A stretch of DNA of 64,000 bases from a virus. The first letter of the stretch is position 1, and each line of letters begins with the position of its first letter. The stretch lies in IMG/VR virus record IMGVR_UViG_3300005066_000001; one strand, written 5' to 3'. The translations under genes and the position numbers were made by a program. Positions 6,912-61,543 of this stretch are shown here, one piece after another. The notes below the pieces were generated by a model. The model did no database searches. It worked only from the letters and a program-made list of their open reading frames with translations, and was not told the DNA's origin.

Positions 6912-7952
6912 TTAGGTCAGGTGGATAATAGTAGCAGGTTTGGTTGCAAAGTACAGAGGGCTGGACTCTACTTCCATGCGATGTTGGGTATCATCAGCGG
7001 CGCGATATTCGAATGCAAACATCTCGTTACCACCTTGGTTAGCCAGAGACAGCTTGTTGGCTGGGCCAAAGTAACCACGATACAGACCATCAGTGTTACG
7101 AGGAATAGCAATACCTTTACCAGCACCAAGAACTTGCTGAGTACCACCTACAGTGTCGAAGGAGGGGTTGTATGCAATAAAACGAACACCACGATGTTCA
7201 AAGAAATCAACAACACCAAAATCGAAGTAGCTGGACAGGTCATCACGGAGACGCTGAACACCACTGTTTACATACATGTTGTAAACTTCACGGAACTTAG
7301 GATTAGCAATGATTTCATCAAACAGTGCATGGTCCAGAATGAAGTCAATACCAGAAACACGGTGGCCTTTACCTGCACCAGCAAGCTTACGTTTGACAGT
7401 AGCAATATTCTTATCAAGGTCTACAGAAGCGTTACCGGTATCAAGGTCAACAGTATAATCAGCAGCAAGGTTCAGACCAAACTCGGAGTACATGTCAACA
7501 ATAGTGTTACCATCACCATCTTTGGTTTGACCAGTCAGAGCGGAGAATTGCAGGAATTCATGAGTCTGATCCATGTTCAGACGCAGATCAAGAAGTTTCT
7601 CTGCACGAACACGGTCAAGGGCTTCTGCCATATCTGCTTCGCCGGGACGACGCTGATCTTGTACATCTTGGACAGTAATGTTATCAAAATGCTTGAAGTA
7701 AGGCAGTGCCAGAGCAAAAGTCTTAACAACACGGTCTTTACCTGCCACACCTTCATTATGGCGGCGGTCTGCCTGACCTAGAACTTTGATATCAGTTTCA
7801 GTACGGTCAAAGGTAATAGAAGTTTGAGAAGTTGGTTGAGTACGGAAGTAACCTTGGGACTTGATAAACCCAAATTGGTTATCAAGCTCCATAATCTCCT
7901 GAGTCCAGTCAGTGATTTGGTTAGCATTAGTAAAGCTATGAGTTTGAGCCAT
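6912..7952 (-). CDS. major capsid protein
   Basis: 346-aa ORF directly downstream of a scaffold-like acidic coiled-coil protein and followed by a strong terminator. Composition and size fit HK97-fold capsid proteins. Confidence 0.55.
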   Translation of the reverse strand: MAQTHSFTNANQITDWTQEIMELDNQFGFIKSQGYFRTQPTSQTSITFDRTETDIKVLGQADRRHNEGVAGKDRVVKTFALALPYFKHFDNITVQDVQDQRRPGEADMAEALDRVRAEKLLDLRLNMDQTHEFLQFSALTGQTKDGDGNTIVDMYSEFGLNLAADYTVDLDTGNASVDLDKNIATVKRKLAGAGKGHRVSGIDFILDHALFDEIIANPKFREVYNMYVNSGVQRLRDDLSSYFDFGVVDFFEHRGVRFIAYNPSFDTVGGTQQVLGAGKGIAIPRNTDGLYRGYFGPANKLSLANQGGNEMFAFEYRAADDTQHRMEVESSPLYFATKPATIIHLT

Positions 7953-8362: not shown

Positions 8363-9433
8363 TTATTTCTTTTGTTTGCGGGCTTTCAGGATTTCAGCAA
8401 CGCGACTCTTGGATTTTTCAAGGTCGGTATTAACTTCTACTTCAGCTTCAATACCAGCTTCTTTTTCTACTACTGAACTCATAGCTTCTTTAGCTTTTTC
8501 AAGAGTATTCATTACCAGAACAGAGGCTTCGGATTTGAACAGTGCGTCAGTCAGAGCAACAGCTTCTTCTTCGGTTACAAAAGAATAGCCTTTAAATACT
8601 TCTAGCATTTGTGCTTTATCTGCTTCTTCTTGAGCTTTAATAAGTTCAAGCCGCTCTTGTTCTGCTTTTTCTTTTGCTTTTTCCAGTTGTTCAATACGCT
8701 CATTTTGTTGCTTAGTTGCTTTTTCAATTTCAGCAGCGATGAGAGCTTGAACTTCACTGGATTTCAAGATTTCTTGATTAATTTCCAATGGGTTCTCCAC
8801 ATCTTTAGATTTATTAACGTTAATATCATCAGAATCAGCAACAATGGAGGTGGATGCTTTTTCCAAAGATTCTTTAAATTCTGTTACAGCTTTGAATAAT
8901 TTGAGCTGTGCATCAGCTTTATTAACAGACTTTGAAACAATTTCATACAGACCAGTTTCAAGTTTGTCTTCAGCTTCCTCGGAAAGCTTGACTTTACCAT
9001 CAACAATCATATAATCTGTAATCTGAACAACAGGGGCGGCTGTGGAACCAACAGTTACAGCACCATCTTCGGTCATAGTAAAAGATGTCACCATCATTTC
9101 CCAACCGTCATAGTCACCAGTGGAAAAGTAGACTTGACCATCTTTCCAATCTTCAACACACAACCACTCATCTTTATCGCAATAAGCTTCTTTAAGCGCA
9201 TTTTGTAGAAGCATAGATTGGTTTTTCATGGACATGGCTTTTTGGATTTCTTCTGGGAAATTCTCAACACCAAACTTTTCAATTGATTTCATGATTTCAT
9301 CAGTCAATTCGATAGTGTCAGATTTCATAAGCAAAGAGATATGTCGGTTGTTTGCACTACCACCTTGCCCTTCATGACAAATGGCAAGATGAGGTGTCTT
9401 TTTAGCACCATCTTTTTTAATATCTAGTTTCAT
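8363..9433 (-). CDS. head scaffolding protein
   Basis: 356-aa highly acidic, Lys/Glu-rich predicted coiled-coil protein (EAEVEVNTDLEKSKSR..., IEQLEKAKEKAEQERLE) immediately upstream of the capsid gene. Confidence 0.5.
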   Translation of the reverse strand: MKLDIKKDGAKKTPHLAICHEGQGGSANNRHISLLMKSDTIELTDEIMKSIEKFGVENFPEEIQKAMSMKNQSMLLQNALKEAYCDKDEWLCVEDWKDGQVYFSTGDYDGWEMMVTSFTMTEDGAVTVGSTAAPVVQITDYMIVDGKVKLSEEAEDKLETGLYEIVSKSVNKADAQLKLFKAVTEFKESLEKASTSIVADSDDINVNKSKDVENPLEINQEILKSSEVQALIAAEIEKATKQQNERIEQLEKAKEKAEQERLELIKAQEEADKAQMLEVFKGYSFVTEEEAVALTDALFKSEASVLVMNTLEKAKEAMSSVVEKEAGIEAEVEVNTDLEKSKSRVAEILKARKQKK

Positions 9434-9918
9434 TATTCCTCATCATAAGGGTCGAAGGTCACATCGGTAATTTCACCTGTTTCTTTGTCGATAGAACCAC
9501 GAGCGCCAATGCTGACGCCTTGGATAATTCCAGCTTTCTTTAAAAGCCACAGATCGGAGTCATTGTATTTTGTCTTGACTACCCATGTACCCGCTTTAAT
9601 AGGTTGATTAGTAGCTTCAACAACTACATCAATTTCTTGTTGGATCCACGATTTTTCAATGGAAAACAAATCTGTATTAGCAAAATGGAACAAATTAGGT
9701 TTGACGTTGCCAAGTTCAAGATTTTTGTTGAAATTTTCGCAAGCCTTAGATACAGTCTCTTGCGACATCCACTCCCCATGAGCATCTTTGGTGTCGGGTT
9801 CGTAGACTACTTCATATGCAATCATTTCTTCTTTGACTTGAGTCTCAGAGACCTTCTTTGTTTTATTTTTGGTAAGGCACTTTGAGGTAGAAGTTCCCTT
9901 TGATATAGTACAAGGCAT
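9433..9918 (-). CDS. hypothetical head morphogenesis protein (candidate prohead protease)
   Basis: 161-aa ORF between the portal and scaffold genes, the usual protease position. No catalytic motif recognised. Confidence 0.25.
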   Translation of the reverse strand: MPCTISKGTSTSKCLTKNKTKKVSETQVKEEMIAYEVVYEPDTKDAHGEWMSQETVSKACENFNKNLELGNVKPNLFHFANTDLFSIEKSWIQQEIDVVVEATNQPIKAGTWVVKTKYNDSDLWLLKKAGIIQGVSIGARGSIDKETGEITDVTFDPYDEE

Positions 9919-10074
9919 TTAATTTACACCCCATTAATTAAATTGTTAACTTTCATAACATAAAAGTAATCTTATCATAAAATTTTAAAATTTTCAAGAA
10001 CTTTTTAAATAAATGTTTATTATTTACAAAGATTTAGGGAGAAATGTTGAAATTCTCCCTAAAACCTAAGCCAA

Positions 10075-11622
10075 TTACACTGTGGTTTGAGCGTTATTTG
10101 ATACCGAGCTATCCGAGTCTGACACTCCATCGCCAGTGCCATTGTTCATTCCTGACTCCATACCATCACCTGCTCTTGTGGTAGGTTTACCAACAAGCTC
10201 CAGAATCTCCTCTGGGGTTTCATCTGTAATCTTCCAATCAACACCGATGATATGTAGAATGTGATTAATGACTTCCTTATTACGTGGGATAAAACCTGTG
10301 GCACCCATACGTTGAATTGCAGCAGAGAATGTGTTAAGGTCAGTTTCTTCAATTTCTCCTGCTTCGAATCTTGGCATATCTTCATCTTCAAGATAAATGC
10401 TATTCAATGCAAGAAGTTGAGGAATTAAATTAACATTAATTTGTTCACAGATGGTATCAACATCTCTTTCTACGTAATGTGCATGTAACGATTGCTTACC
10501 TTCACTTAGTGCATAGGAACCAACTCCATCGTTGCCTAAGTTTAGAAAACCTGCACCAAGGCAGTCAAGGATTGCTTTGTGGCGGACATTAATCAACTCA
10601 GTAGTGGAGAATTGTTTACCTGCACCTTCAACACCTTTCAGTGTCATCTTATAAAGTTCATGGCCTGCTTCTACATCAGAAGGCAACATGAAAAACGCTT
10701 GTTCACCAGCATGGGCGTTAGCAGCATCGCGCATCAGCCCTGTGACGAAATCAGCTTCTGCCGAAGATGGATCCAAAGCAGCTTTGTTCAGAACGTCTGA
10801 GGGAATTTTAAGCTCGATTACACCACCTAAATCTCTAGCAGCCCCAATAACTTCATAGTTTTGAATAAGGATCTTTTCTCGCCATGCTTTATAGCACCCC
10901 ATCAGGGGAGATTCGCCAAAAGGATTGGATTCAGTTGCATTATAGGCAAAGATAAGGCATTTGTTGACAGGGATTTCAATTTTACCACGATCACTTAAAT
11001 CAGGATAAAACATTTGCATTACACCAGAACTATTTTTAAAATAGCTTGGGTTTTGGTTAATGCTTCTTATCTCTTTTCCGCCATCAATAAATGTAAACGG
11101 CTCACTTGAATCAAGGGAAGCTTGTGGCCTAGATGCTAGTTTTTTAATTTTGTATTTGCCAGCATATTTACCTTCATTAATTAAAGTAAACACTTTCTCA
11201 AGAATACTGAAACCATATTCATTGAATGTAGCTGCACTTCTTGCCATTTGACGCACAGTCCCAGAATCCATATTCTTTAGGCACCAAGTTACAAAATCAG
11301 CAGCCTCTTTAGACTTAGCAGAGCCTTGCTTAGGGACTACTCTCCATGTATTAAACGCTTTTTCAATAAACATGTATTTTATATTGAGCCCCTGTGCTAC
11401 CGACTCATCTTGTTTCATTGAATAATACGTTTTAACACAATGAGGCCATTTAAGTTCTCTTGGAGCCATTGACTCTGAATCTAAATGGATTTGAGAAAGA
11501 GCTAATGTCCCCATTTCTGACATACGAAGCCTAGAGGTGGAGACATTACTATTACCAGCTTTTTCAATTGGGTTTTTACGTGGCCTTCCTCGTTTTCTTG
11601 GTTGGTCAGGTTGTGTTGACAT
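10075..11622 (-). CDS. portal protein
   Basis: 515-aa ORF immediately downstream of the terminase large subunit. Basic N-terminus (RKRGRPRKNP), size and position typical of portals. Confidence 0.5.
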   Translation of the reverse strand: MSTQPDQPRKRGRPRKNPIEKAGNSNVSTSRLRMSEMGTLALSQIHLDSESMAPRELKWPHCVKTYYSMKQDESVAQGLNIKYMFIEKAFNTWRVVPKQGSAKSKEAADFVTWCLKNMDSGTVRQMARSAATFNEYGFSILEKVFTLINEGKYAGKYKIKKLASRPQASLDSSEPFTFIDGGKEIRSINQNPSYFKNSSGVMQMFYPDLSDRGKIEIPVNKCLIFAYNATESNPFGESPLMGCYKAWREKILIQNYEVIGAARDLGGVIELKIPSDVLNKAALDPSSAEADFVTGLMRDAANAHAGEQAFFMLPSDVEAGHELYKMTLKGVEGAGKQFSTTELINVRHKAILDCLGAGFLNLGNDGVGSYALSEGKQSLHAHYVERDVDTICEQINVNLIPQLLALNSIYLEDEDMPRFEAGEIEETDLNTFSAAIQRMGATGFIPRNKEVINHILHIIGVDWKITDETPEEILELVGKPTTRAGDGMESGMNNGTGDGVSDSDSSVSNNAQTTV

Positions 11623-11652: not shown

Positions 11653-12786
11653 CTAATACGATTTATTATGATAGAATGCGGCTGTTGGTGCATTGAATCG
11701 CGGCATTGTTGGTGCTTTATGAATTTTCTTTGTTGCTAAAAACGAAAAGACTGAAGCACAGGCATCAGGCCAATCATCTTTTCTGTCTGCTGTAGATCTC
11801 TCTCCATCAAAACTTTCAAGTTCTTTATAGAAAGCTGCAAGTGTTGCTGGTTCAAAAGTGTCTTCTACAATAGAAACCAAACCATTTTGACAAGCAGAGC
11901 TGAACGCTTCAAATCGTTTAAGTTTAGATTTGTTGGAGGGGTTAGGGTCTTCTTTTACAATAAACCCCTCATTAGTGAACATCTTAGCCATCTCGTTAAA
12001 CGCAAATGCACCAGCTTGTCCTGGATCTTTAGGAAGAACCACAATAGTGTCTGAGCCATCGTGTTTGGCTTGTAACAACATCCACGTATCACGAACACCG
12101 GGACGTTTTCTAAACCTACCATTCTGTCTAGTCAATTCATCAAAAGTTTCTTGAATATAATCACCAACAATAATATAAGTATCTTGGTTTGTTTTTAACA
12201 TTTTGATACTTGCGGTATAGTCAGGATATCTATTCTTATCAGATGGTTCAGCAGAAGCTAAGTCCCATCCTCGTGCTTCTGTGCAATTCAAAGGTACTTT
12301 GTCCAGCTTATTTAACCAACTGCGTTGGAAATAATTAGAACCTTCTGGGCGAGCATACCAGTTACCGTCCAATAGTCTGGCGCGGTTAATTGGTGACTGA
12401 GCTTTCAGTGCAGACAAATACTTTGGGTTAGATTTTATTAGTGCTGGGTTATCGAAGATAGTCCCGCTGATAAAAGTAAATGACATAGGAGGAATATAAA
12501 TCCTTTCACCATCATTTTCTTGATAACAAATATCAGGGTACGCTTCTGCTAACTCTTCCTCTGTATTAGCAAAAATAGGTTTATCATCAACAATAACGAA
12601 GTACCTAATAACTCCGTCTTTACTCTGGTCTGGATAGCCTTCTGGATCCAAATACCACTCAACGAACGAAAGCACCCAACTGTCCGGTGATGGGTTACAA
12701 GTCCCCATACAGAAGCTATCGCACTCCGCTTCAGAACGGAGACGTCCTATAAGGTATAAAAATTGAGATTGTGAGAAATGTGTCAA
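11653..12786 (-). CDS. terL: terminase large subunit, C-terminal exon (ATPase motif III plus nuclease domain)
   Basis: Contains GTCNPSPDSWVLSFVEW, which resembles the T4 gp17 TTPNG...HFYDIW ATPase coupling motif. An RNase-H-like nuclease region follows. The frame is closed by TGA at 12793-12795, so the N-terminal part is encoded elsewhere (14053-14421). Confidence 0.7.
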   Translation of the reverse strand: MTHFSQSQFLYLIGRLRSEAECDSFCMGTCNPSPDSWVLSFVEWYLDPEGYPDQSKDGVIRYFVIVDDKPIFANTEEELAEAYPDICYQENDGERIYIPPMSFTFISGTIFDNPALIKSNPKYLSALKAQSPINRARLLDGNWYARPEGSNYFQRSWLNKLDKVPLNCTEARGWDLASAEPSDKNRYPDYTASIKMLKTNQDTYIIVGDYIQETFDELTRQNGRFRKRPGVRDTWMLLQAKHDGSDTIVVLPKDPGQAGAFAFNEMAKMFTNEGFIVKEDPNPSNKSKLKRFEAFSSACQNGLVSIVEDTFEPATLAAFYKELESFDGERSTADRKDDWPDACASVFSFLATKKIHKAPTMPRFNAPTAAFYHNKSY

Positions 12787-13268: not shown

Positions 13269-13931
13269 TTAATTAAATTTGTAATTTTTTGAAATTTCTG
13301 TGAAGTATATCCGGCGTTTTATACAAGAAATAGACCTTTTATTAGCATTGGTAATCTCTTCTATTTCTGCATAACTTCTACCTTCTTGAAGTAATTCACA
13401 GATATTGATCACTGTTTCTACGCTTATTCTCTGGTCCCTCTTTACTACAGAGAAGTCATATTCATCAGAAATATAATTATATGATTTTTTGTTTTTTATT
13501 TCAGAAACTGTGTATTTAGGAACACCAAACATGTTAGATATATCACTATTTCTAAATCCATCACAAATTTTAGAACAAATTGCGTGAACTTGTTCATCGG
13601 TCAGCAGTGCGTTGTTTCTTAACCCTGTCCTCTCTGCGTGAACACAATTTTCAGAAGGCGTTACCCACTCTAAGTTCTCTACAGTATTATTTAATTTATT
13701 TCCGTCTTTATGATTAACTTCTTTTTTATTCTCTGGATTTTCAATAAAAGCTGTAGCTACCAAGCGATGAACTGAAAATTTATGTTTTTTCCCGTTTTCA
13801 TAACACTCTATGTACTGGTATCCTGCTGTGTCTGAGAATGGTTTTAAAAATCTGTTAGATTTTAAACTAAATATTTTACCTTCCCGTGATACGCAATAGT
13901 TTGGCTGGTCAACAAAAATCATATTTTTCAT
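13269..13931 (-). CDS. HNH homing endonuclease (intron-encoded)
   Basis: 220-aa ORF with a canonical HNH core (HRLVATAFIENP...VNHKDGNKLNNTVENLEWVTPSENCVHA). C-terminal region resembles DNA-binding modules of intron endonucleases. Embedded in the terL intervening sequence. Confidence 0.85.
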   Translation of the reverse strand: MKNMIFVDQPNYCVSREGKIFSLKSNRFLKPFSDTAGYQYIECYENGKKHKFSVHRLVATAFIENPENKKEVNHKDGNKLNNTVENLEWVTPSENCVHAERTGLRNNALLTDEQVHAICSKICDGFRNSDISNMFGVPKYTVSEIKNKKSYNYISDEYDFSVVKRDQRISVETVINICELLQEGRSYAEIEEITNANKRSISCIKRRIYFTEISKNYKFN

Positions 13932-14052: not shown

Positions 14053-14421
14053 TTAATGGTTGGCTTCTGCTGTATCTTCGTGCTCTAAGTGGGTGTATTT
14101 AAGGTTCCCACCACCTGTTCCTTCGAAAATAATCTCCATGTCTTTTTCACGGATTCTTGGATTAAGTGGTCTGAAAAGTTTCTTGCTTTCTGTAAACAAT
14201 CCGCCAGCACCTTTAAGGGGGCCAGTTGTTCTTCGAAACATTACACCTTCAAAATTAGGATCTTGATATGCGTGTTTTAATGCTTTTATTAAAAGAAGTC
14301 TCGACTTGCCGCTACCTGCGGCACCGCCGTATATCATTACATCTACTTTTGTATCAAAAGCTTTTCGTTGTTTTCCCTCTTGAGGGGCTAAGTTAACAAC
14401 ATTATTTTGTTTAGTTGCCAA
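14053..14421 (-). CDS. terL: terminase large subunit, N-terminal exon (Walker A ATPase)
   Basis: 122-aa ORF with Walker A (YGGAAGSGKS) directly downstream of the terS-like gene. The frame runs into a stop inside the insertion, as expected for exon 1 reading into an intron. Confidence 0.75.
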   Translation of the reverse strand: MATKQNNVVNLAPQEGKQRKAFDTKVDVMIYGGAAGSGKSRLLLIKALKHAYQDPNFEGVMFRRTTGPLKGAGGLFTESKKLFRPLNPRIREKDMEIIFEGTGGGNLKYTHLEHEDTAEANH

Positions 14422-17144: not shown

Positions 17145-17219
17145 TGGCACAGGTACAGCGATTTGAACGCTGACAATCTTTTTAGAAGAAAGATATGCTA
17201 TCCATTACATCATACCTGC
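17145..17219 (-). tRNA. tRNA-Arg (anticodon TCT)
   Basis: Manual cloverleaf, 75 nt: acceptor GCAGGTA/TACCTGT (G1-U wobble); D-loop with GG; anticodon arm TCTTT-CTTCTAA-AAAGA; T-arm CAGCG-TTCAAAT-CGCTG; discriminator G and an encoded CCA. Confidence 0.65.
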
Positions 17220-17228
17220 AAGTTAATT

Positions 17229-17303
17229 TGGTGGGCCTAGATGGAATCCAACCATCCTTGAACCAGTTATGAGCTGGCTGCATTCGCAGACTGCCATAGG
17301 CCC
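17229..17303 (-). tRNA. tRNA-Met-like (anticodon CAT), atypical D- and T-loops
   Basis: Manual fold, 75 nt: acceptor GGGCCTA/TAGGCCC plus A plus CCA; anticodon arm GCCAG-CTCATAA-CTGGT; T-arm GATGG-TTGGATT-CCATC. T-loop has G at the usual C56 position and the D-loop lacks GG. Could be an initiator/elongator Met or an Ile(lysidine) tRNA. Confidence 0.5.
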
Positions 17304-17325
17304 TGTAAATCTTTAAAATACTTAG

Positions 17326-17408
17326 TGTTGGATGTGAGACTCGAACTCACGATGAGGTTTCCCTGCTGGATTACAAAACCAGTCGTATCGCCACTAACGG
17401 AATCCAAC
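17326..17408 (-). tRNA. tRNA (83 nt, long variable arm; anticodon uncertain, UGU if the loop is canonical)
   Basis: Acceptor GTTGGAT/ATCCAAC; T-arm GTGAG-TTCGAGT-CTCAC; D-loop TAGTGGCGAT; variable hairpin AGG-GAAA-CCT; anticodon region CTGGT-TTTGTAA-TCCAG with a U-U mismatch at 31-39. No encoded CCA. Confidence 0.4.
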
Positions 17409-48892: not shown

Positions 48893-49753
48893 GTGGCTGA
48901 AAATAAGAAGAAACAACAAAAAGCTGAAGATTTTATAGGTGAGACGTTTAATAATGGCAGATTAAGGGTTGTAGGAATTGCAGGTAAGGATAAATGGGGA
49001 ATTTCATTATTTAAAGTAACTTGTACTGAATGTTCTAAAGATCCTGAACTGTTTCCAGATGGTTATTTTGTTAGTACAAAAAGTAACCTGAAGAATGGGC
49101 GGAAACCCTGCGGTTGTTCTAAGTACGAATGGGAAGATTGGCAATATCTGATTCTTGCTCGTAGAGCAGGAGAAGAGAAAGGATTTGTTGTTCATGGTTT
49201 TGCAGAAGAGTTTCATGGGGCATATACAAAACTAAACCTAGAATGTTTAAAAGACAGTTATAAGTGGACTGCAAGTATTGATAATGTAATCAATAACGGC
49301 AGATGTTGTCCTAAGTGTTCTGGAAATGCCAGACCAACAGAACAAGAAGCCCTGCAAAAATGTATTGATATCTGCAAAGAAATGGATTACGATGCTGTTG
49401 GCTTTGTTGGTGGATATAAAAATAACCGTTCTCATTTTGAATACAATTGTAAGATTCACGGAAAACAGGGTGTCAGCTATCACAATTTTGTAAACAATGG
49501 GACACGTTGTGGTGGTTGTTGGAAAGATAGGCAAGTTGAATTACTAAGAGATAACGGAAACGGCAACGGATACTATCCCGAAAGAAAAGATGAAATTGAT
49601 TTTCTTTATGTCTTAGACTTCAATGGTAAATTCATCAAAGTTGGAAGATCTTTTATTGTTGACGATAGGATTAAGAAGTTAAGGTCTTTATCTAAAATTA
49701 AAAAGATCTATAAATTGAGGACCTTTTACAGCAACACATCAAGAGATTTATGA
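48893..49753 (+). CDS. Zn-ribbon/GIY-YIG-like homing-endonuclease-like protein, copy 1 (C-terminus frameshifted)
   Basis: Paralog of 60545-61543 (same N-terminus MxENKKKQQKAEDFIG, CxxC repeats, YVLDFNGKFIKVGRS GIY-YIG-like segment). Relative to copy 2, one extra T in a T-run near 49726 shifts the last ~45 codons into another frame (continues to 49893). Confidence 0.5.
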   Translation: MAENKKKQQKAEDFIGETFNNGRLRVVGIAGKDKWGISLFKVTCTECSKDPELFPDGYFVSTKSNLKNGRKPCGCSKYEWEDWQYLILARRAGEEKGFVVHGFAEEFHGAYTKLNLECLKDSYKWTASIDNVINNGRCCPKCSGNARPTEQEALQKCIDICKEMDYDAVGFVGGYKNNRSHFEYNCKIHGKQGVSYHNFVNNGTRCGGCWKDRQVELLRDNGNGNGYYPERKDEIDFLYVLDFNGKFIKVGRSFIVDDRIKKLRSLSKIKKIYKLRTFYSNTSRDL

Positions 49754-54962: not shown

Positions 54963-55016
54963 AGAGTAGTGTTAAACACACAATTCCATTTTAATCAACA
55001 CCAAGGAGGTGTTATA

Positions 55017-55805
55017 GTGAGAGAAGATTATTGGTCTGACGCACACGAGCAAGATTCCAGTTTTCAACAACATAAAGAGGTGAATAAAAAGATGAAAGGA
55101 CGCAACAATACTCCTAACACTTTTAAAGCGAAAACAGATAGTAATAGGGACACAACACCTCTTCGTCCGATGAATGACCGTCAAGCAGAGTACATTGACG
55201 CTATTTACAACCATGCCGTGGTTATTGCCACTGGTGTTTGGGGGTCAAGTAAAACATACATCCCGTCTGTTATTGCTTGTGATATGTTGCTTGCCAAAAA
55301 GATTGACAAAATTGTAGTAGCTCGTCCCGCAGAAGGTAAGGCTAAATCTGTAGGGTTCTATAAAGGAACTAAGAACGAAAAACTCGAAGGTTGGGTGGCT
55401 CCAATTGCAGATGTATTTAAGAAGCGACTGGGTATCGGGCACTACGAAGCTTATGTTGAAAATGGGAAGATTGAACTACTCTCACTTGAACAAGTGAAGG
55501 GTCGTTCTTGGGACAACACCTTTGTAATTGTGGATGAAGCTGAAGATTTGGCCCCAGAGGTAGCTAAATCTCTTGTAGGACGGCAAGGTGTAAATTCTAT
55601 CACAGTGATCACTGGGGATATTGACCAAAAAGATCTTAAAAGTTATAGTGGACTAGAGCTGTTACTCGAAGTTTCAAAGTACGGTAACATTGATATGAGT
55701 ATTATTGATTTTGATAAATGGGAATACTGTGTACGTTCTCAAGAAGCAAAAGCTTGGGGTATGGCATTTGAGAAATATGAGCGCCGAAATGGTAGAGTAA
55801 AATAA
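55017..55805 (+). CDS. phoH: PhoH-like ATPase
   Basis: P-loop VVIATGVWGSSKTY and the DEAQN-like FVIVDEAEDL. Start taken as GTG at 55017, after CAAGGAGGTGTTATA, within the tracked frame 54969-55805. Confidence 0.55.
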   Translation: MREDYWSDAHEQDSSFQQHKEVNKKMKGRNNTPNTFKAKTDSNRDTTPLRPMNDRQAEYIDAIYNHAVVIATGVWGSSKTYIPSVIACDMLLAKKIDKIVVARPAEGKAKSVGFYKGTKNEKLEGWVAPIADVFKKRLGIGHYEAYVENGKIELLSLEQVKGRSWDNTFVIVDEAEDLAPEVAKSLVGRQGVNSITVITGDIDQKDLKSYSGLELLLEVSKYGNIDMSIIDFDKWEYCVRSQEAKAWGMAFEKYERRNGRVK

Positions 55806-58554: not shown

Positions 58555-58854
58555 ATGACAAAACAATATAATCCCAACGATTACATTTTTCTCTGTCAAT
58601 CAGATGAAGGTTTCGTACTTGCACAAAATACAATATCTGATATAATTACAAGTGTCCAGAAACCAGATAAGGTTCTTGGATATACAAAAGACTTTAATGA
58701 GGTTTGCAAATTGTTTACTGAGTGTATTGACATCATGGTTGAAGGTGAGTATAATATAGGTGACAAGATTAGTTATAATAACTGTCAATACTACGTTCTT
58801 GAAATTGGAGAGAACAGCGAAGAGGGTCTGCAAGAATTGATTGTTGGTCGGTAA
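58555..58854 (+). CDS. hypothetical protein
   Basis: 99-aa ORF. Confidence 0.4.
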   Translation: MTKQYNPNDYIFLCQSDEGFVLAQNTISDIITSVQKPDKVLGYTKDFNEVCKLFTECIDIMVEGEYNIGDKISYNNCQYYVLEIGENSEEGLQELIVGR

Positions 58855-58870: not shown

Positions 58871-59074
58871 ATGGATAAACGTGATCTAAAAGAATATGGT
58901 ATTGCACATCGAGCTTGCCAAACTATCTCTGATATTATTGAAAAGCTGGAAAATATGGATACTGTCTTAGAGCATGACAGTGATAAAATGGAAGAATTCA
59001 TACAACACCTGTGTAATATCAGAGACAACGAGGTTAATTTTTATATTGATTTTGAGAATGACCACTGTAATTAA
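58871..59074 (+). CDS. hypothetical protein
   Basis: 67 aa; RBS AAAGGGAGGAATAAATG. Confidence 0.4.
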   Translation: MDKRDLKEYGIAHRACQTISDIIEKLENMDTVLEHDSDKMEEFIQHLCNIRDNEVNFYIDFENDHCN

Positions 59075-59088
59075 AGGAGGATACTAAT

Positions 59089-59538
59089 ATGCAAACAAGT
59101 ATGAGTTGTACCAAGATAAATGCACTTATGGACACACAATTGGTATACCCTGAAGTTATCCGTGAACACATGGAACGACTTTATGCGGTAGCTGAGAGCA
59201 ACTATGTCTACAAGAACCGAAAAAAGTTTAATTTCATGAAATTTGGATATACTTCTGAAGAAGTTCTTAAACAACAGTTTGAATCTATCTTCAAAGATTA
59301 CCGTGAACTTCACAAGGATATTGATACACTAAAACATCTGCATTGTTTGGAGCCGTGGCAAGTATCAGAGATGAAGAGGTTAATGAAAATCTACAATTGT
59401 CTTGTTGCATTGCAGAAAATTATTCGTTTATATTTGTTCTCTGATAATCCGGTACAAGTAGACTATAACACTGTTTCTTGGTTGAATTTCCTATACAAAA
59501 ACGAAGGAGAGATCCGTAGTTATATTAGGAATGTTTAA
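59089..59538 (+). CDS. hypothetical protein
   Basis: 149 aa; RBS TAAAGGAGGATACTAATATG. Confidence 0.4.
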   Translation: MQTSMSCTKINALMDTQLVYPEVIREHMERLYAVAESNYVYKNRKKFNFMKFGYTSEEVLKQQFESIFKDYRELHKDIDTLKHLHCLEPWQVSEMKRLMKIYNCLVALQKIIRLYLFSDNPVQVDYNTVSWLNFLYKNEGEIRSYIRNV

Positions 59539-59577
59539 GTTGTAAATTACTATTTAATAACAGAAGGAGAAATTAAT

Positions 59578-60456
59578 TTGACTACAATCGCAGTAAAAGA
59601 TGGTATTATGGTAGGTGACGGTCGTTGTTCACTTGGTAGCACCGTAATCAAAGATGATATGGTAAAAGTCTTTTGGGTTAACAACCACTTGATGGGTGGG
59701 GCAGGACGAGCACGGTCTATCAGCACCTTTGCCCAATGGTTGCAGAAACACACAGATTACACAATTGTTAATCAAGAAGTTGGAGATCTTGTTGATTTGA
59801 TTCCGCCTGTTCTACAGGACGACGAGGAGTTTACGGCGTTGGTTTTGACTCCAGACAAACAAGTTTTGATGTATGATGGTAATGTCGCTCTTAATCTTGG
59901 GCACGATGTTCAAGCATCAATTGGTTCAGGTAGTGTATTCGCCCTTGCAGCCATGGATGCTGGTGCATCAGCAGAAGATGCAGTCAAAATTGCAATGAAA
60001 CGGGATGTTTATTCTGGTGGTGAAATCACTGTCGTTCAACTAGAAGAAGAATCTGAACCTATAACACGAGAAGTTGCAGAGAACCTTTCAAAAGACGAGC
60101 TGATTAACATGTTTTTCGGGGAGCAAGAATCCAGTGAAGCTGTCGTAAATAAAGAAACATGCACGATTGGTGTTAAGGAGTACGATGACAGTTTGATTCG
60201 TATTTATTCTTGGACAGATGATATTGTAGTGTTGTTTAATGAGGATGCAAGAGAATATATTTTTAAAATTGACAATATTGAATATGATATCAATGGAGAT
60301 TTTACACCAGCTTACTTTGTTGTTGACTCAGGATTTAGTACAGAAGAGTTTAGAAGCCTCTGTAATGATATGGATATACAATATTCACTGAACAATACCA
60401 GAGAACAACTTTCTTCTAAGATTATCAAAGAAATAAAATCAAAGATTACAAATTAA
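59578..60456 (+). CDS. HslV-like Ntn-hydrolase (proteasome beta-type peptidase) with ~115-aa acidic C-terminal extension
   Basis: N-terminus (M)TTIAVKDGIMVGDGRCSLGSTVIKDDMVKVFWVNNHLMGGAGRARSISTF aligns with the HslV start TTIVSVRRNG...GDGQVSLGNTVMK...GFAG...AFTLFE, including the Thr1 nucleophile. TTG start after GAAGGAGAAATTAA. Confidence 0.55.
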   Translation: MTTIAVKDGIMVGDGRCSLGSTVIKDDMVKVFWVNNHLMGGAGRARSISTFAQWLQKHTDYTIVNQEVGDLVDLIPPVLQDDEEFTALVLTPDKQVLMYDGNVALNLGHDVQASIGSGSVFALAAMDAGASAEDAVKIAMKRDVYSGGEITVVQLEEESEPITREVAENLSKDELINMFFGEQESSEAVVNKETCTIGVKEYDDSLIRIYSWTDDIVVLFNEDAREYIFKIDNIEYDINGDFTPAYFVVDSGFSTEEFRSLCNDMDIQYSLNNTREQLSSKIIKEIKSKITN

Positions 60457-60460
60457 ATAT

Positions 60461-60494
60461 AGCACAAGGAGCAGTTTGCTCCTTGTGCTATTTT
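60461..60494 (+). terminator. rho-independent terminator
   Basis: AGCACAAGGAGCA-GTTT-GCTCCTTGTGCT then ATTTT. Confidence 0.55.
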
Positions 60495-60544: not shown

Positions 60545-61543
60545 ATGACTGAAAATAAAAAGAAACAACAAAAAGCTGAAGATTTCATAGGTTGGAAAAG
60601 TAAAGATGGAAAACTAGAAGTTATTGGTATTATTGAGAAATCGAAGCATACCACTTTTAAAGTTACCTGTACGGAATGTTCCAAAGATCCTGAATTATTC
60701 CATGATGGATATTTTGTTAGTGTCAAAAGTAGTTTGGTTAAAGAAATCAAACCTTGTGGTTGTGGGAAAAATGTAAGATGGAGGGACTTTCAATATTTAA
60801 TATTAGCCCGTAGAGCATCAAAAGACAGGTTTATTGTTCATGGTTTTGTTGAAGGATTTAAAAATCAAAACACCAAACTAAACCTTGAATGTTTGAAAGA
60901 TGGGCATAAGTGGACTGCAAGTATTAATGATATTATTAATAGTGGCAAAGGTTGTTCAAAGTGTGCTGGTGTATATAGGCCAACAGAACAAGAAGCATTG
61001 CAAAAATGTATTGATATTTGTAAAGAAATGAGCTATGATGTTGTTGGTTTTGTTGGTGGATATAAAAACAACACTTCTCGTTTTGAGTACATCTGCAAAA
61101 TTCATGGAAAACAGAATGTTAGATATGGTAATTTTGTAAACAAAGGAACACGTTGTCGGGGTTGTGCTAAAGATGAAACCATTAGAAGATTAAGGGAAGA
61201 TGGAAATGGTAATGGATACTATCCCGAAAGAAAAGATGAAACTGATTTCTTGTACATCTTGAACTTCAATGGTAAATTCATTAAAGTTGGAAGGTCTTTT
61301 CTTGTTGATAAAAGAGTTGATGCTTTAAAGTCTATATCTAAAATCAAAAAGATTCACAAACTCAGAATATTCACAGCAACACATCAAGAGATTTATGATT
61401 TTGAACAAGAACTACATAACGAGTTACGAGAAAGAAACTTCCAACATTATGTAGATTGGTCAACAGAGTGTTTTGAAAATGATTCACTGTTCGTTCTCAA
61501 TAAATTTCTGGATAGTTGTGGTCTAGAAGAAATAAAACAATGA
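60545..61543 (+). CDS. Zn-ribbon/GIY-YIG-like homing-endonuclease-like protein, copy 2 (intact)
   Basis: 332 aa. CxxC pairs CTECSKD, CGCGKN, CSKCAG, CRGC; then YILNFNGKFIKVGRSFLVDKRVDALKS, a GIY-YIG-like segment. Paralog of 48893-49753. Confidence 0.5.
   Translation: MTENKKKQQKAEDFIGWKSKDGKLEVIGIIEKSKHTTFKVTCTECSKDPELFHDGYFVSVKSSLVKEIKPCGCGKNVRWRDFQYLILARRASKDRFIVHGFVEGFKNQNTKLNLECLKDGHKWTASINDIINSGKGCSKCAGVYRPTEQEALQKCIDICKEMSYDVVGFVGGYKNNTSRFEYICKIHGKQNVRYGNFVNKGTRCRGCAKDETIRRLREDGNGNGYYPERKDETDFLYILNFNGKFIKVGRSFLVDKRVDALKSISKIKKIHKLRIFTATHQEIYDFEQELHNELRERNFQHYVDWSTECFENDSLFVLNKFLDSCGLEEIKQ

Follow-up and report, generated by a model that had tools for sequence, protein, structure and literature searches.

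The gene at positions 59578 to 60456 of the 64,000-nucleotide stretch of viral DNA analysed here (the window) encodes a protein that starts like HslV and is considerably longer. It raises the questions of whether the product is a proteasome-type peptidase with its catalytic residues in place, whether it would work with or against HslU, and what the long C-terminal extension contributes.

A catalogued phage family of proteasome-type peptidases

59563 to 59569, + strand: Shine-Dalgarno site GAAGGAG, read in the sequence, 8 nt 5' of the TTG start
59578 to 60456, + strand: complete open reading frame of 292 amino acids plus stop codon; predicted proteasome-type Ntn peptidase with a C-terminal module, matching PHROG 1040 and identical to the metagenomic protein P0001

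The open reading frame is real, and its product, read directly from the sequence, starts M-TTIAVKDGIMVGDGRCSLGSTVIKDD...GGAGRARSISTF. An M-T-T N-terminus is present in 124 of the best 150 representatives (out of 2386), which supports the TTG start at 59578, as does the strong ribosome-binding site. Both the position of the gene and its HslV-like N-terminus with a Thr1 nucleophile, as given in the original prediction, were borne out, with the threonine at position 2 invariant in an alignment of 76 sequences. An identical protein (P0001), for which there are 246 homologs, is encoded on a 118-kb JGI metagenomic contig. The window belongs to an Aeromonas myophage-like genome, kin to Plateaulakevirus (2L372D, phiA009), and DNA matches of the region were limited to 15 Aeromonas phage records with 73–88% identity.

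At the protein level, tblastn detected relatives in 165 phage records, from phages of Aeromonas, Escherichia (including Phapecoctavirus and Justusliebigvirus), Vibrio, Klebsiella and Shewanella, and many of these records are already annotated 'peptidase HslV family'. When 1.84 billion representatives were searched exhaustively, 2386 of them matched. The product also matches PHROG 1040, named 'peptidase HslV family', over residues 1–291 (profile positions 14–270 of 277; E 6.6e-47, 161 bits), a name likewise held by the homologs in Aeromonas phages 2L372D, 4L372D and 4L372XY and in phAPEC8 and VnaP. The gene had been treated as unusual, but it is already catalogued as PHROG 1040, as 'peptidase HslV family' in RefSeq, and as PPH/RPC in PMC8665760. 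Phage proteasome homologs are widespread, as the 165 phage genomes and 2386 representative matches illustrate, and none has an assigned function; the literature searched on phage HslV-like, PPH and ClpP-like proteins yielded no functional, biochemical or genetic study of any member. On these matches, we regard the gene as encoding a putative peptidase of an already catalogued but functionally uncharacterised phage family.

The Ntn domain and its catalytic residues

59578 to 60042, + strand: predicted Ntn (proteasome beta/HslV-like) peptidase domain, amino acids 1–155, delimited by profiles, the 76-sequence alignment, an AlphaFold2 model and Foldseek

The Pfam family PF00227 matched the product with 26.3 bits (gathering cut-off 22.4; E 6.9e-6), and most homologs carry a precomputed annotation to the same family. 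By sequence, the nearest solved relatives were HslV of T. maritima (1m4y; E 7e-4) and also proteasome beta5. An AlphaFold2 model of the whole product, computed with the 76-sequence alignment as input, had a mean pLDDT of 85, with values of 85–98 across residues 1–155, and the best Foldseek matches of this model were HslV from several species, BPH and 20S beta (E ~1e-8, probability 1.00). The alpha-beta-beta-alpha sandwich of the original prediction is accordingly what model and structural matches give, and the likeness to HslV and proteasome subunits clearly exceeds chance.

An alignment to E. coli HslV, the sequence of which was verified against PDB 5ji3, served to check the residue register. 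In this register T2 corresponds to Thr1, D14 to Asp17, K30 to Lys33, G43 to Gly47, S117 to Ser129, G118 to Gly130, D143 to Asp166 and S146 to Ser169. Across the 76 sequences T2, K30, G43, G116 and G118 are invariant, while conservation is at least 90% at D14, S117, D143, S146 and G147, meaning that the equivalents of Thr1, Lys33 and Ser129–Gly130, which had been singled out beforehand, are all invariant or nearly so. Judged by its profile matches and model, the product is a proteasome-type Ntn hydrolase (PF00227/MEROPS T1), as originally proposed, with PF00227 above its cut-off, the catalytic set kept and HslV, BPH and 20S beta as its structural matches. The full proteasome-type catalytic set is intact and the product is predicted to be catalytically competent. 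Its nucleophilic threonine would be bared merely by removal of the initiator methionine, with no propeptide. We also looked within the window for a second Ntn or ClpP paralog and found none, and PADLOC profiles of anti-phage defence gave no matches to the product up to an E value of 1.

Relation to HslV and HslU

The PHROG 1040 name implies HslV, yet the product fails the curated HslV models. The two NCBIfam HslV equivalog models, NF003964 and TIGR03692, have cut-offs of 137 and 157.75 bits, and the product reached 25.1 and 24.4 bits with them, respectively; the archaeal proteasome beta model gave slightly more than either of these two scores. DSSP analysis of the AlphaFold2 model showed one long helix at residues 45–71 followed by coil at 72–84; helix H2 is absent, the corresponding segment being a proline-containing acidic coil that is wholly deleted from the ~140-residue relatives in the alignment. 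Compared with HslV, 9 residues are also missing between H3 and H4. The pocket of HslV that receives the HslU tail is reported to be lined by Phe54, Phe57, Lys80 and Gln114 (PMC6429459); the phage protein has Ser, Ala and Leu in place of Phe54, Phe57 and Gln114, and an acidic coil with Pro-Pro where Lys80 would lie. Lys24 aligns with HslV Lys28, but the equivalent of Lys28 is not conserved in the 76-sequence consensus. Furthermore, no AAA+ unfoldase or hslU was found among the annotated open reading frames of the + strand arm that carries the gene, and no AAA+ unfoldase was found in the related cassettes of other phages that we examined.

The protein resembles HslV (ClpQ) in its Ntn fold, its M-T-T start, a Thr1 bared by removal of methionine and the Asp17/Lys33/Gly/Ser-Gly catalytic constellation, and differs from it in having no H2, a pocket that is not conserved, the H3–H4 deletion, an extra 137-residue module and no adjacent hslU. 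On model scores and predicted structure we conclude that it is not an HslV ortholog, and the initial identification as HslV was not upheld, with scores more than 110 bits below both equivalog cut-offs and H2 replaced by coil.

It had also been suggested that the protein could act as a decoy for HslU. A phage protein that assembles like HslV and either uses or sequesters the HslU of its host would agree with the presence of HslV structures among the best fold matches and with the HslV-like N-terminal sequence, including Lys24 aligned to Lys28, and the likely gammaproteobacterial host is expected to possess HslUV. However, because the equivalog models fail, H2 is missing from the model, the pocket residues are not conserved and no AAA+ gene lies nearby, a role as HslU partner or decoy is unlikely. 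The higher score of the archaeal proteasome beta model and the lack of a conserved Lys28 equivalent across the family also count against it, as does the finding, described below, that the same tail is joined in other phages to a ClpP-type domain, which docks unfoldases differently and, as an interchangeable warhead, cannot dock HslU. Overall we give assembly and use or capture of HslU in the manner of HslV very little credence. In terms of annotation, members of this family should not be taken as HslV orthologs, and cooperation with HslU is not to be expected of them.

Fit to the PPH and RPC proteins

PPH and RPC are group I proteasome-like proteins, described with occurrence in tailed phages and a compact core without H2 and S12/H5 (Fuchs, Alva and Lupas 2021, PMC8665760). 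RPC is given there as 'related to PPH, with a C-terminal extension', its extra domain matched no known structure, and it was reported only from Proteobacteria and not from phages (PMC8665760). The phage protein fits the descriptions of these groups, which are represented by WP_042125023.1 (PPH) and WP_140207863 (RPC). DSSP of the model likewise gave a compact core without the H2 and S12/H5 elements. Occurrence in tailed phages and the ~140-residue length of many of the nearest relatives, which is the size of PPH, are shared with PPH, and an additional C-terminal domain (residues 158–292) is shared with RPC; a core of ~155 residues, with coil kept at the H2 position, is unlike either. The linker motif, the putative SAP-like fold and the sharing of a module with ClpP-like proteases, all reported below, do not appear in PMC8665760.

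BPH (PDB 5ovs/5ovt), similarly a group I homolog, is not known to have an ATPase partner. It was among the top structural matches, although with lower similarity (TM 0.54, 18% identity), and it lacks a C-terminal module. It assembles as a tetradecamer; some of the phage-type proteasome homologs may not form stacked rings (Fuchs et al., PMC8665760).

Anatomy of the C-terminal extension

60049 to 60126, + strand: conserved linker motif, amino acids 158–183 (ESEPITREVAENLSKDELINMFFGEQ), with two short modelled helices; recombination junction
60118 to 60183, + strand: predicted disordered acidic tether, amino acids 181–202, pLDDT <50, variable in length and sequence
60190 to 60453, + strand: predicted folded C-terminal domain, amino acids 205–292, modelled as a four-stranded beta-meander followed by three helices
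60307 to 60447, + strand: putative SAP/LEM/HeH (Rho-N-like) helical sub-domain, amino acids 244–290

The Ntn domain ends near residue 155, leaving an extension of ~137 residues with a net charge of -14 and a pI of 4.2. An acidic extension of ~115 residues had been described at the outset; it is indeed long and acidic, but it amounts to ~137 residues, is mostly folded in the model, and is not distinctive in its acidity, with the protease domain also acidic (pI 4.4).

Its most conserved part is the linker motif, with the consensus E-P-x-[LI]-T-R-E-x4-[LM]-S-K-[ED]-E-L-[IL]-x2-[FL]-F-G-E, in which the lysine of 'SK' is invariant. The helices modelled in it (residues 164–169 and 172–180) have pLDDT values of 65–74. 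Relatives of 183–200 residues end with this motif, and it is also common to phage ClpP-like proteins. The C-terminal domain was modelled with pLDDT 84–96 as part of the full-length protein, and with pLDDT 90.3 and pTM 0.81 when modelled alone.

The end of the C-terminal domain has a putative SAP/LEM/HeH-like fold. Sequence searches returned no significant SAP/LEM/HeH match for this domain, with Pfam giving weak matches to EAD7 and Rho_N; a profile search of the PDB gave nothing significant, and the sole significant match in BFVD was the homolog from 4L372XY. Unlike SAP/LEM/HeH motifs and the Rho N-terminal helical domain, it has a beta-meander before the helices and is net acidic. A net acidic charge would be unusual for a DNA binder.

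A portable tail behind exchangeable protease heads

One of the representative matches, P0209, aligns to the phage protein only at residues 154–290. It carries a Clp-protease domain (PF00574) ahead of the same linker and C-terminal domain, and its module is 41% identical to that of our protein over 150 residues (E 2e-22). When compared with 2L372D, the metagenomic contig encoding P0209 has 87–88% DNA identity immediately upstream of the gene and across the tail, but ~590 bp at the protease domain has no match to 2L372D. This pair amounts to an in-situ replacement of the Ntn domain. While this first pair rests on a 1.7-kb metagenomic contig (L002), both members of a second are cultured phages. 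These are VnaP and PWH3a-P1 of Vibrio natriegens, which have complete genomes of ~129 kb with the same gene order, in which VnaP_091 is of the Ntn type and VPIG_00091 of PWH3a-P1, at the same position, is of the ClpP type. Their tails are 45% identical over 132 residues (E 3e-25) and the flanks are syntenic with 74–85% identity. A profile built only from Ntn-linked tails scored 38.5 bits on the ClpP tail of PWH3a-P1; it gave weak scores of 10.9 and 7.7 bits on the tails of ICP1 and KLEP7, respectively, at the same terminal position. By alignment and synteny, these are two independent swaps.

The ClpP-like proteins near PhoH (ICP1 'ClpP ATP-dependent protease subunit', PWH3a-P1 VPIG_00091, KLEP7 gp112 and the metagenomic P0209) share with the Ntn-type protein their genomic position, the linker motif, an acidic stretch and a C-terminal domain with a putative HeH-like end, and the modules of P0209 and PWH3a-P1 are 41–45% identical to those of Ntn-type proteins. 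They differ in the protease itself, a Clp-fold Ser-His-Asp domain that is unrelated to Ntn hydrolases. In an alignment to E. coli ClpP, these domains appear to retain the Ser, His and Asp/Glu positions.

The same mosaicism is seen among the Ntn-type proteins. Some close relatives have an N-terminal domain 97% identical to that of our protein and a module only 43–51% identical, and in others this is reversed, with 70% identity in the N-terminal domain and 100% in the module. The aligned sequences indicate that the module recombines and diversifies independently of the protease domain, and that the tail is portable, with two unrelated protease folds exchangeable before it in the same genomic slot. 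We found no earlier description of Ntn and ClpP heads being swapped on a common tail, and this is the main addition of the present analysis. A search for other fusion partners with a linker plus C-terminal domain profile (A2) gave 94 matches, all Ntn-type proteins, and a tail-only profile that included the ClpP tails (A4) added only three short KLEP7-like tail fragments.

These exchanges bear on two other explanations of the protein. In one, the module would serve the assembly, gating or auto-regulation of the protease particle, perhaps by capping the pore or driving oligomerisation, and the enzyme would be a general peptidase that recycles peptides to amino acids. Many relatives are bare cores of ~140 residues or cores with the linker motif only: among the best 150 of the 2386 matches, 77 have at most 165 residues, 31 have 166–215 and 42 are longer. 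Since so many relatives lack the folded C-terminal domain, it would be dispensable for the basic activity of the family, and the conservation of the linker motif above the rest of the extension also fits such a role. However, an element of this kind should evolve together with the protease fold that it serves, and instead the module is common to two folds and recombines freely. A tether of predicted disorder also separates it from the core. We consider a regulatory module possible, though doubtful.

The other is that the Ntn domain carries out non-proteolytic chemistry, as a connectase-like ligase or transpeptidase, or as an amidase on a non-protein substrate. In favour of this, connectase, a ligase, belongs to the proteasome-like superfamily, and the chemistry of Ntn hydrolases is varied (PMC8665760). 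Against this, the complete proteasome-type set of proteolytic residues is conserved, and the in-situ replacement by a ClpP-type Ser-His-Asp domain points to hydrolysis of peptide bonds as the activity that both have in common. Non-proteolytic chemistry would be a considerable surprise.

Genomic context and expression

58727 to 58755, + strand: perfect sigma-70 consensus promoter, TTGACA-17-TATAAT, the nearest upstream of the protease gene
59089 to 59538, + strand: gene for a 149-residue protein, directly upstream of the protease gene
60459 to 60491, no strand assigned: perfect 15-bp stem-loop, terminator-like, 3 nt after the stop codon; called on the - strand by the scan and followed on the + strand by TTTTAG

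The + strand arm around the gene encodes a DNA polymerase exonuclease subunit, ligases, ThyA, DHFR, NrdAB, NrdD and PhoH, with homing endonucleases interspersed, and the protease slot lies downstream of PhoH. A cassette of lysozyme, PhoH, one or more small open reading frames and the protease recurs in ICP1, KLEP7, PWH3a-P1, VnaP, phAPEC8 and 2L372D, and the gene list of phage V22 suggests the same arrangement. The V22 paper merely lists the genes.

In all related cassettes examined, the protease is preceded by a gene for a protein of 149–166 residues. A tblastn search with the 149-residue protein of the window, with E values up to 10, gave matches only in Aeromonas phages. A conserved upstream partner gene was considered, but profile-profile comparison with the versions in Vibrio phages gave a P value of 0.025 and a probability of 2%, and we do not claim homology.

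Across the whole window there are 21 near-consensus sigma-70 promoters (at most one mismatch) versus 4.7 expected, and all four perfect ones are on the + strand of the replication arm. When sigma-70 sites of every class were counted in the surrounding 4.8 kb, there were 25 versus 21.7 expected, which is not above chance. The promoter at 58727–58755 likely serves the string of genes starting at 58871, 59089 and 59578, and would do so early. From the location in the replication arm, the sigma-70 promoter enrichment and the hairpin after the stop codon, we infer early expression of the protease gene, driven by the host polymerase. The earlier placement of the gene in a phage early region agrees with this + strand replication and nucleotide-metabolism arm and its excess of near-consensus promoters.

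An additional enzyme beside the capsid protease

6912 to 7952, head-module strand: major head protein
9433 to 9918, head-module strand: Peptidase_S78_2 (XkdF-type) protease, E 1.7e-21, between the portal and a putative scaffold gene
10075 to 11622, head-module strand, opposite to the protease gene: portal

A further explanation would have the protease associated with the virion or procapsid, the C-terminal module targeting it to capsid or scaffold, and the enzyme processing or accompanying packaged proteins. The ClpP-like domain that takes the place of the Ntn domain is indeed closest to 'head maturation protease, ClpP-related', with a score of 70.8 bits that does not reach the cut-off of 120. 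However, the head module, which also has a probable scaffold and a decoration protein, has its own canonical S78 protease, and the Ntn protease gene lies ~50 kb from the head genes, on the other strand and within the replication arm with its early sigma-70 promoters. A separate S78 homolog annotated 'capsid protease' is likewise encoded by ICP1, far from the gene in which that phage joins ClpP to the module, and S78 homologs are also found in Phapecoctaviruses. The separate S78 proteases in the window and in ICP1 indicate that the protease of the PhoH-proximal slot is an additional enzyme. Prohead protease was rejected as the main explanation on these grounds, and a virion-associated role in the wider sense is improbable.

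Proposed function

We propose that the gene encodes an early auxiliary, chamber-forming peptidase that is independent of HslU and receives its targeting or specificity from its tail, and we put the probability of this reading at roughly one half. The link to function comes from the module being common to two folds at the same slot and recombining independently, which points to a chamber-forming peptidase delivered by its tail. Likewise, a tail that is common to two unrelated folds and diversifies fastest fits a role in specificity.

In detail, a threonine peptidase of the PPH/RPC lineage (PHROG 1040) would be made early from promoters of the host RNA polymerase. It would consist of two parts, a protease 'warhead' (residues 1–155) and the portable C-terminal module, the latter comprising a helical motif, a disordered acidic tether and an 85-residue alpha/beta domain with a SAP/LEM/HeH-like end. 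The protease would be enzymatically active, assemble into a ring and act without HslU or another unfoldase, and it would not be the head-maturation enzyme. The tail would have a targeting role, tethering the protease to a partner in the infected cell that could be nucleic acid or protein. This partner may be host proteins that are to be removed, either for host takeover or as counter-defence, two roles that the original prediction also raised.

HslV and ClpP alone cleave only peptides or unfolded chains, so that degradation of proteins by this peptidase without an unfoldase is an assumption. We give a more specific version of the proposal a low probability. Here the protein would be a modular 'targeted degrader', in which the fast-evolving SAP-like module picks a host protein that is bound to DNA or RNA, or a defence protein, and is joined by a flexible tether to an unfoldase-independent chambered warhead of Ntn or ClpP type that is exchanged freely in natural populations.

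For the auxiliary peptidase with a targeting tail, a bare 'peptidase HslV family' label is replaced by a testable design, in which the partner of the tail would probably reveal the substrate. If it is true that the tail targets host defence or nucleoid proteins, these phages would possess a natural modular device for protein degradation with an exchangeable catalytic head.

A conserved gene order around the slot protease

Comparison of the cassette order in phages ICP1, PWH3a-P1, VnaP, KLEP7, phAPEC8 and 2L372D (loci L003, L004, L005, L006 and L007, plus the window) revealed an order conserved across distant myophages, with a T4-like lysozyme followed by a PhoH-like ATPase, one or more small ORFs, and an auxiliary protease. 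This last gene, here termed the slot protease, has either a proteasome-type (Ntn) or a ClpP-type head.

Window 54969-55805, PhoH gene, with the cassette running on to 59578
Window 59089-59538 (+), 149-aa gene directly 5' of the slot protease

A gene of 149-166 aa consistently lies directly 5' of the slot protease, with either protease type. The genes at this position are the window gene and 2L372D_209, which are 93% identical, VnaP_090 and PWH3a_00092, which are 58% identical, phAPEC8 gp174, and KLEP7 gp113. On visual inspection their C-termini appear similar (N-x-V-x-V-[DN]...YKN), and between the Aeromonas and Vibrio versions there was no tblastn match and no significant hhalign score (P 0.025).

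A second proteasome-like gene, co-occurring protease types and alternative tails

In Aeromonas phage 2L372D and the 1.7-kb metagenomic contig L002, the 149-aa gene and the main protease gene flank a second proteasome-like gene.

2L372D 8432-8983, gene 2L372D_210, 183 aa, PF00227
L002 135-686, the same gene, 183 aa, PF00227

The encoded protein begins M/L-TCIIALRD...GD... and matches PF00227 over the whole domain, slightly under threshold (E 4.9e-4, 20.2 bits), with weak matches also to the NCBIfam HslV models. As this gene is missing from the window, it is accessory and may encode a partner subunit.

Vibrio phage VnaP has an Ntn-type slot protease and, ~4 kb downstream, a distinct ClpP-like gene.

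VnaP 9869-10465, ClpP-like gene VnaP_103, 198 aa

Likewise, the gene list of Alteromonas phage V22 contains a proteasome-like gene as well as one for a Clp protease, and thus both protease types can co-occur within a single phage genome. In addition, some family members, P0142 and P0150 among the representative hits, have a different, Trp-rich C-terminal domain behind the same linker motif (e.g. ...GWDIVWWKVDDE), which shows that tail domains of more than one kind are joined to this protease core.

Homing endonucleases and an apparently split terminase

The genome shows heavy colonisation by homing endonucleases.

Window 48893-49753 (+), PHROG 681 endonuclease, paralog 1, between nrdA and nrdB
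Window 60545-61543 (+), PHROG 681 endonuclease, paralog 2, directly downstream of the protease gene
Window 26820, 39653, 41071 and 55933, several HNH endonucleases
Window 11653-12786, 13269-13931 and 14053-14421 (all -), large terminase region, PHROG 979

In 2L372D, no gene of this length occupies the site matching window 60545-61543. The large terminase gene appears split: an HNH endonuclease ORF (-) divides an N-terminal part, covering PHROG 979 positions 151-258, from a C-terminal part covering positions 274-619, and this separation suggests an intron or homing-endonuclease insertion.

Promoters and tRNA genes

Four perfect TTGACA-17-TATAAT promoters were found, all within the replication and metabolism arm and on its + strand, and over the whole window matches with at most one mismatch were ~4.5-fold enriched relative to shuffles.

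Window 28236, 48833, 51011 and 58727 (+), perfect promoters

Three tRNA genes (Arg-TCT, Met-CAT and Thr-TGT) are clustered at window 17145-17408 (-).
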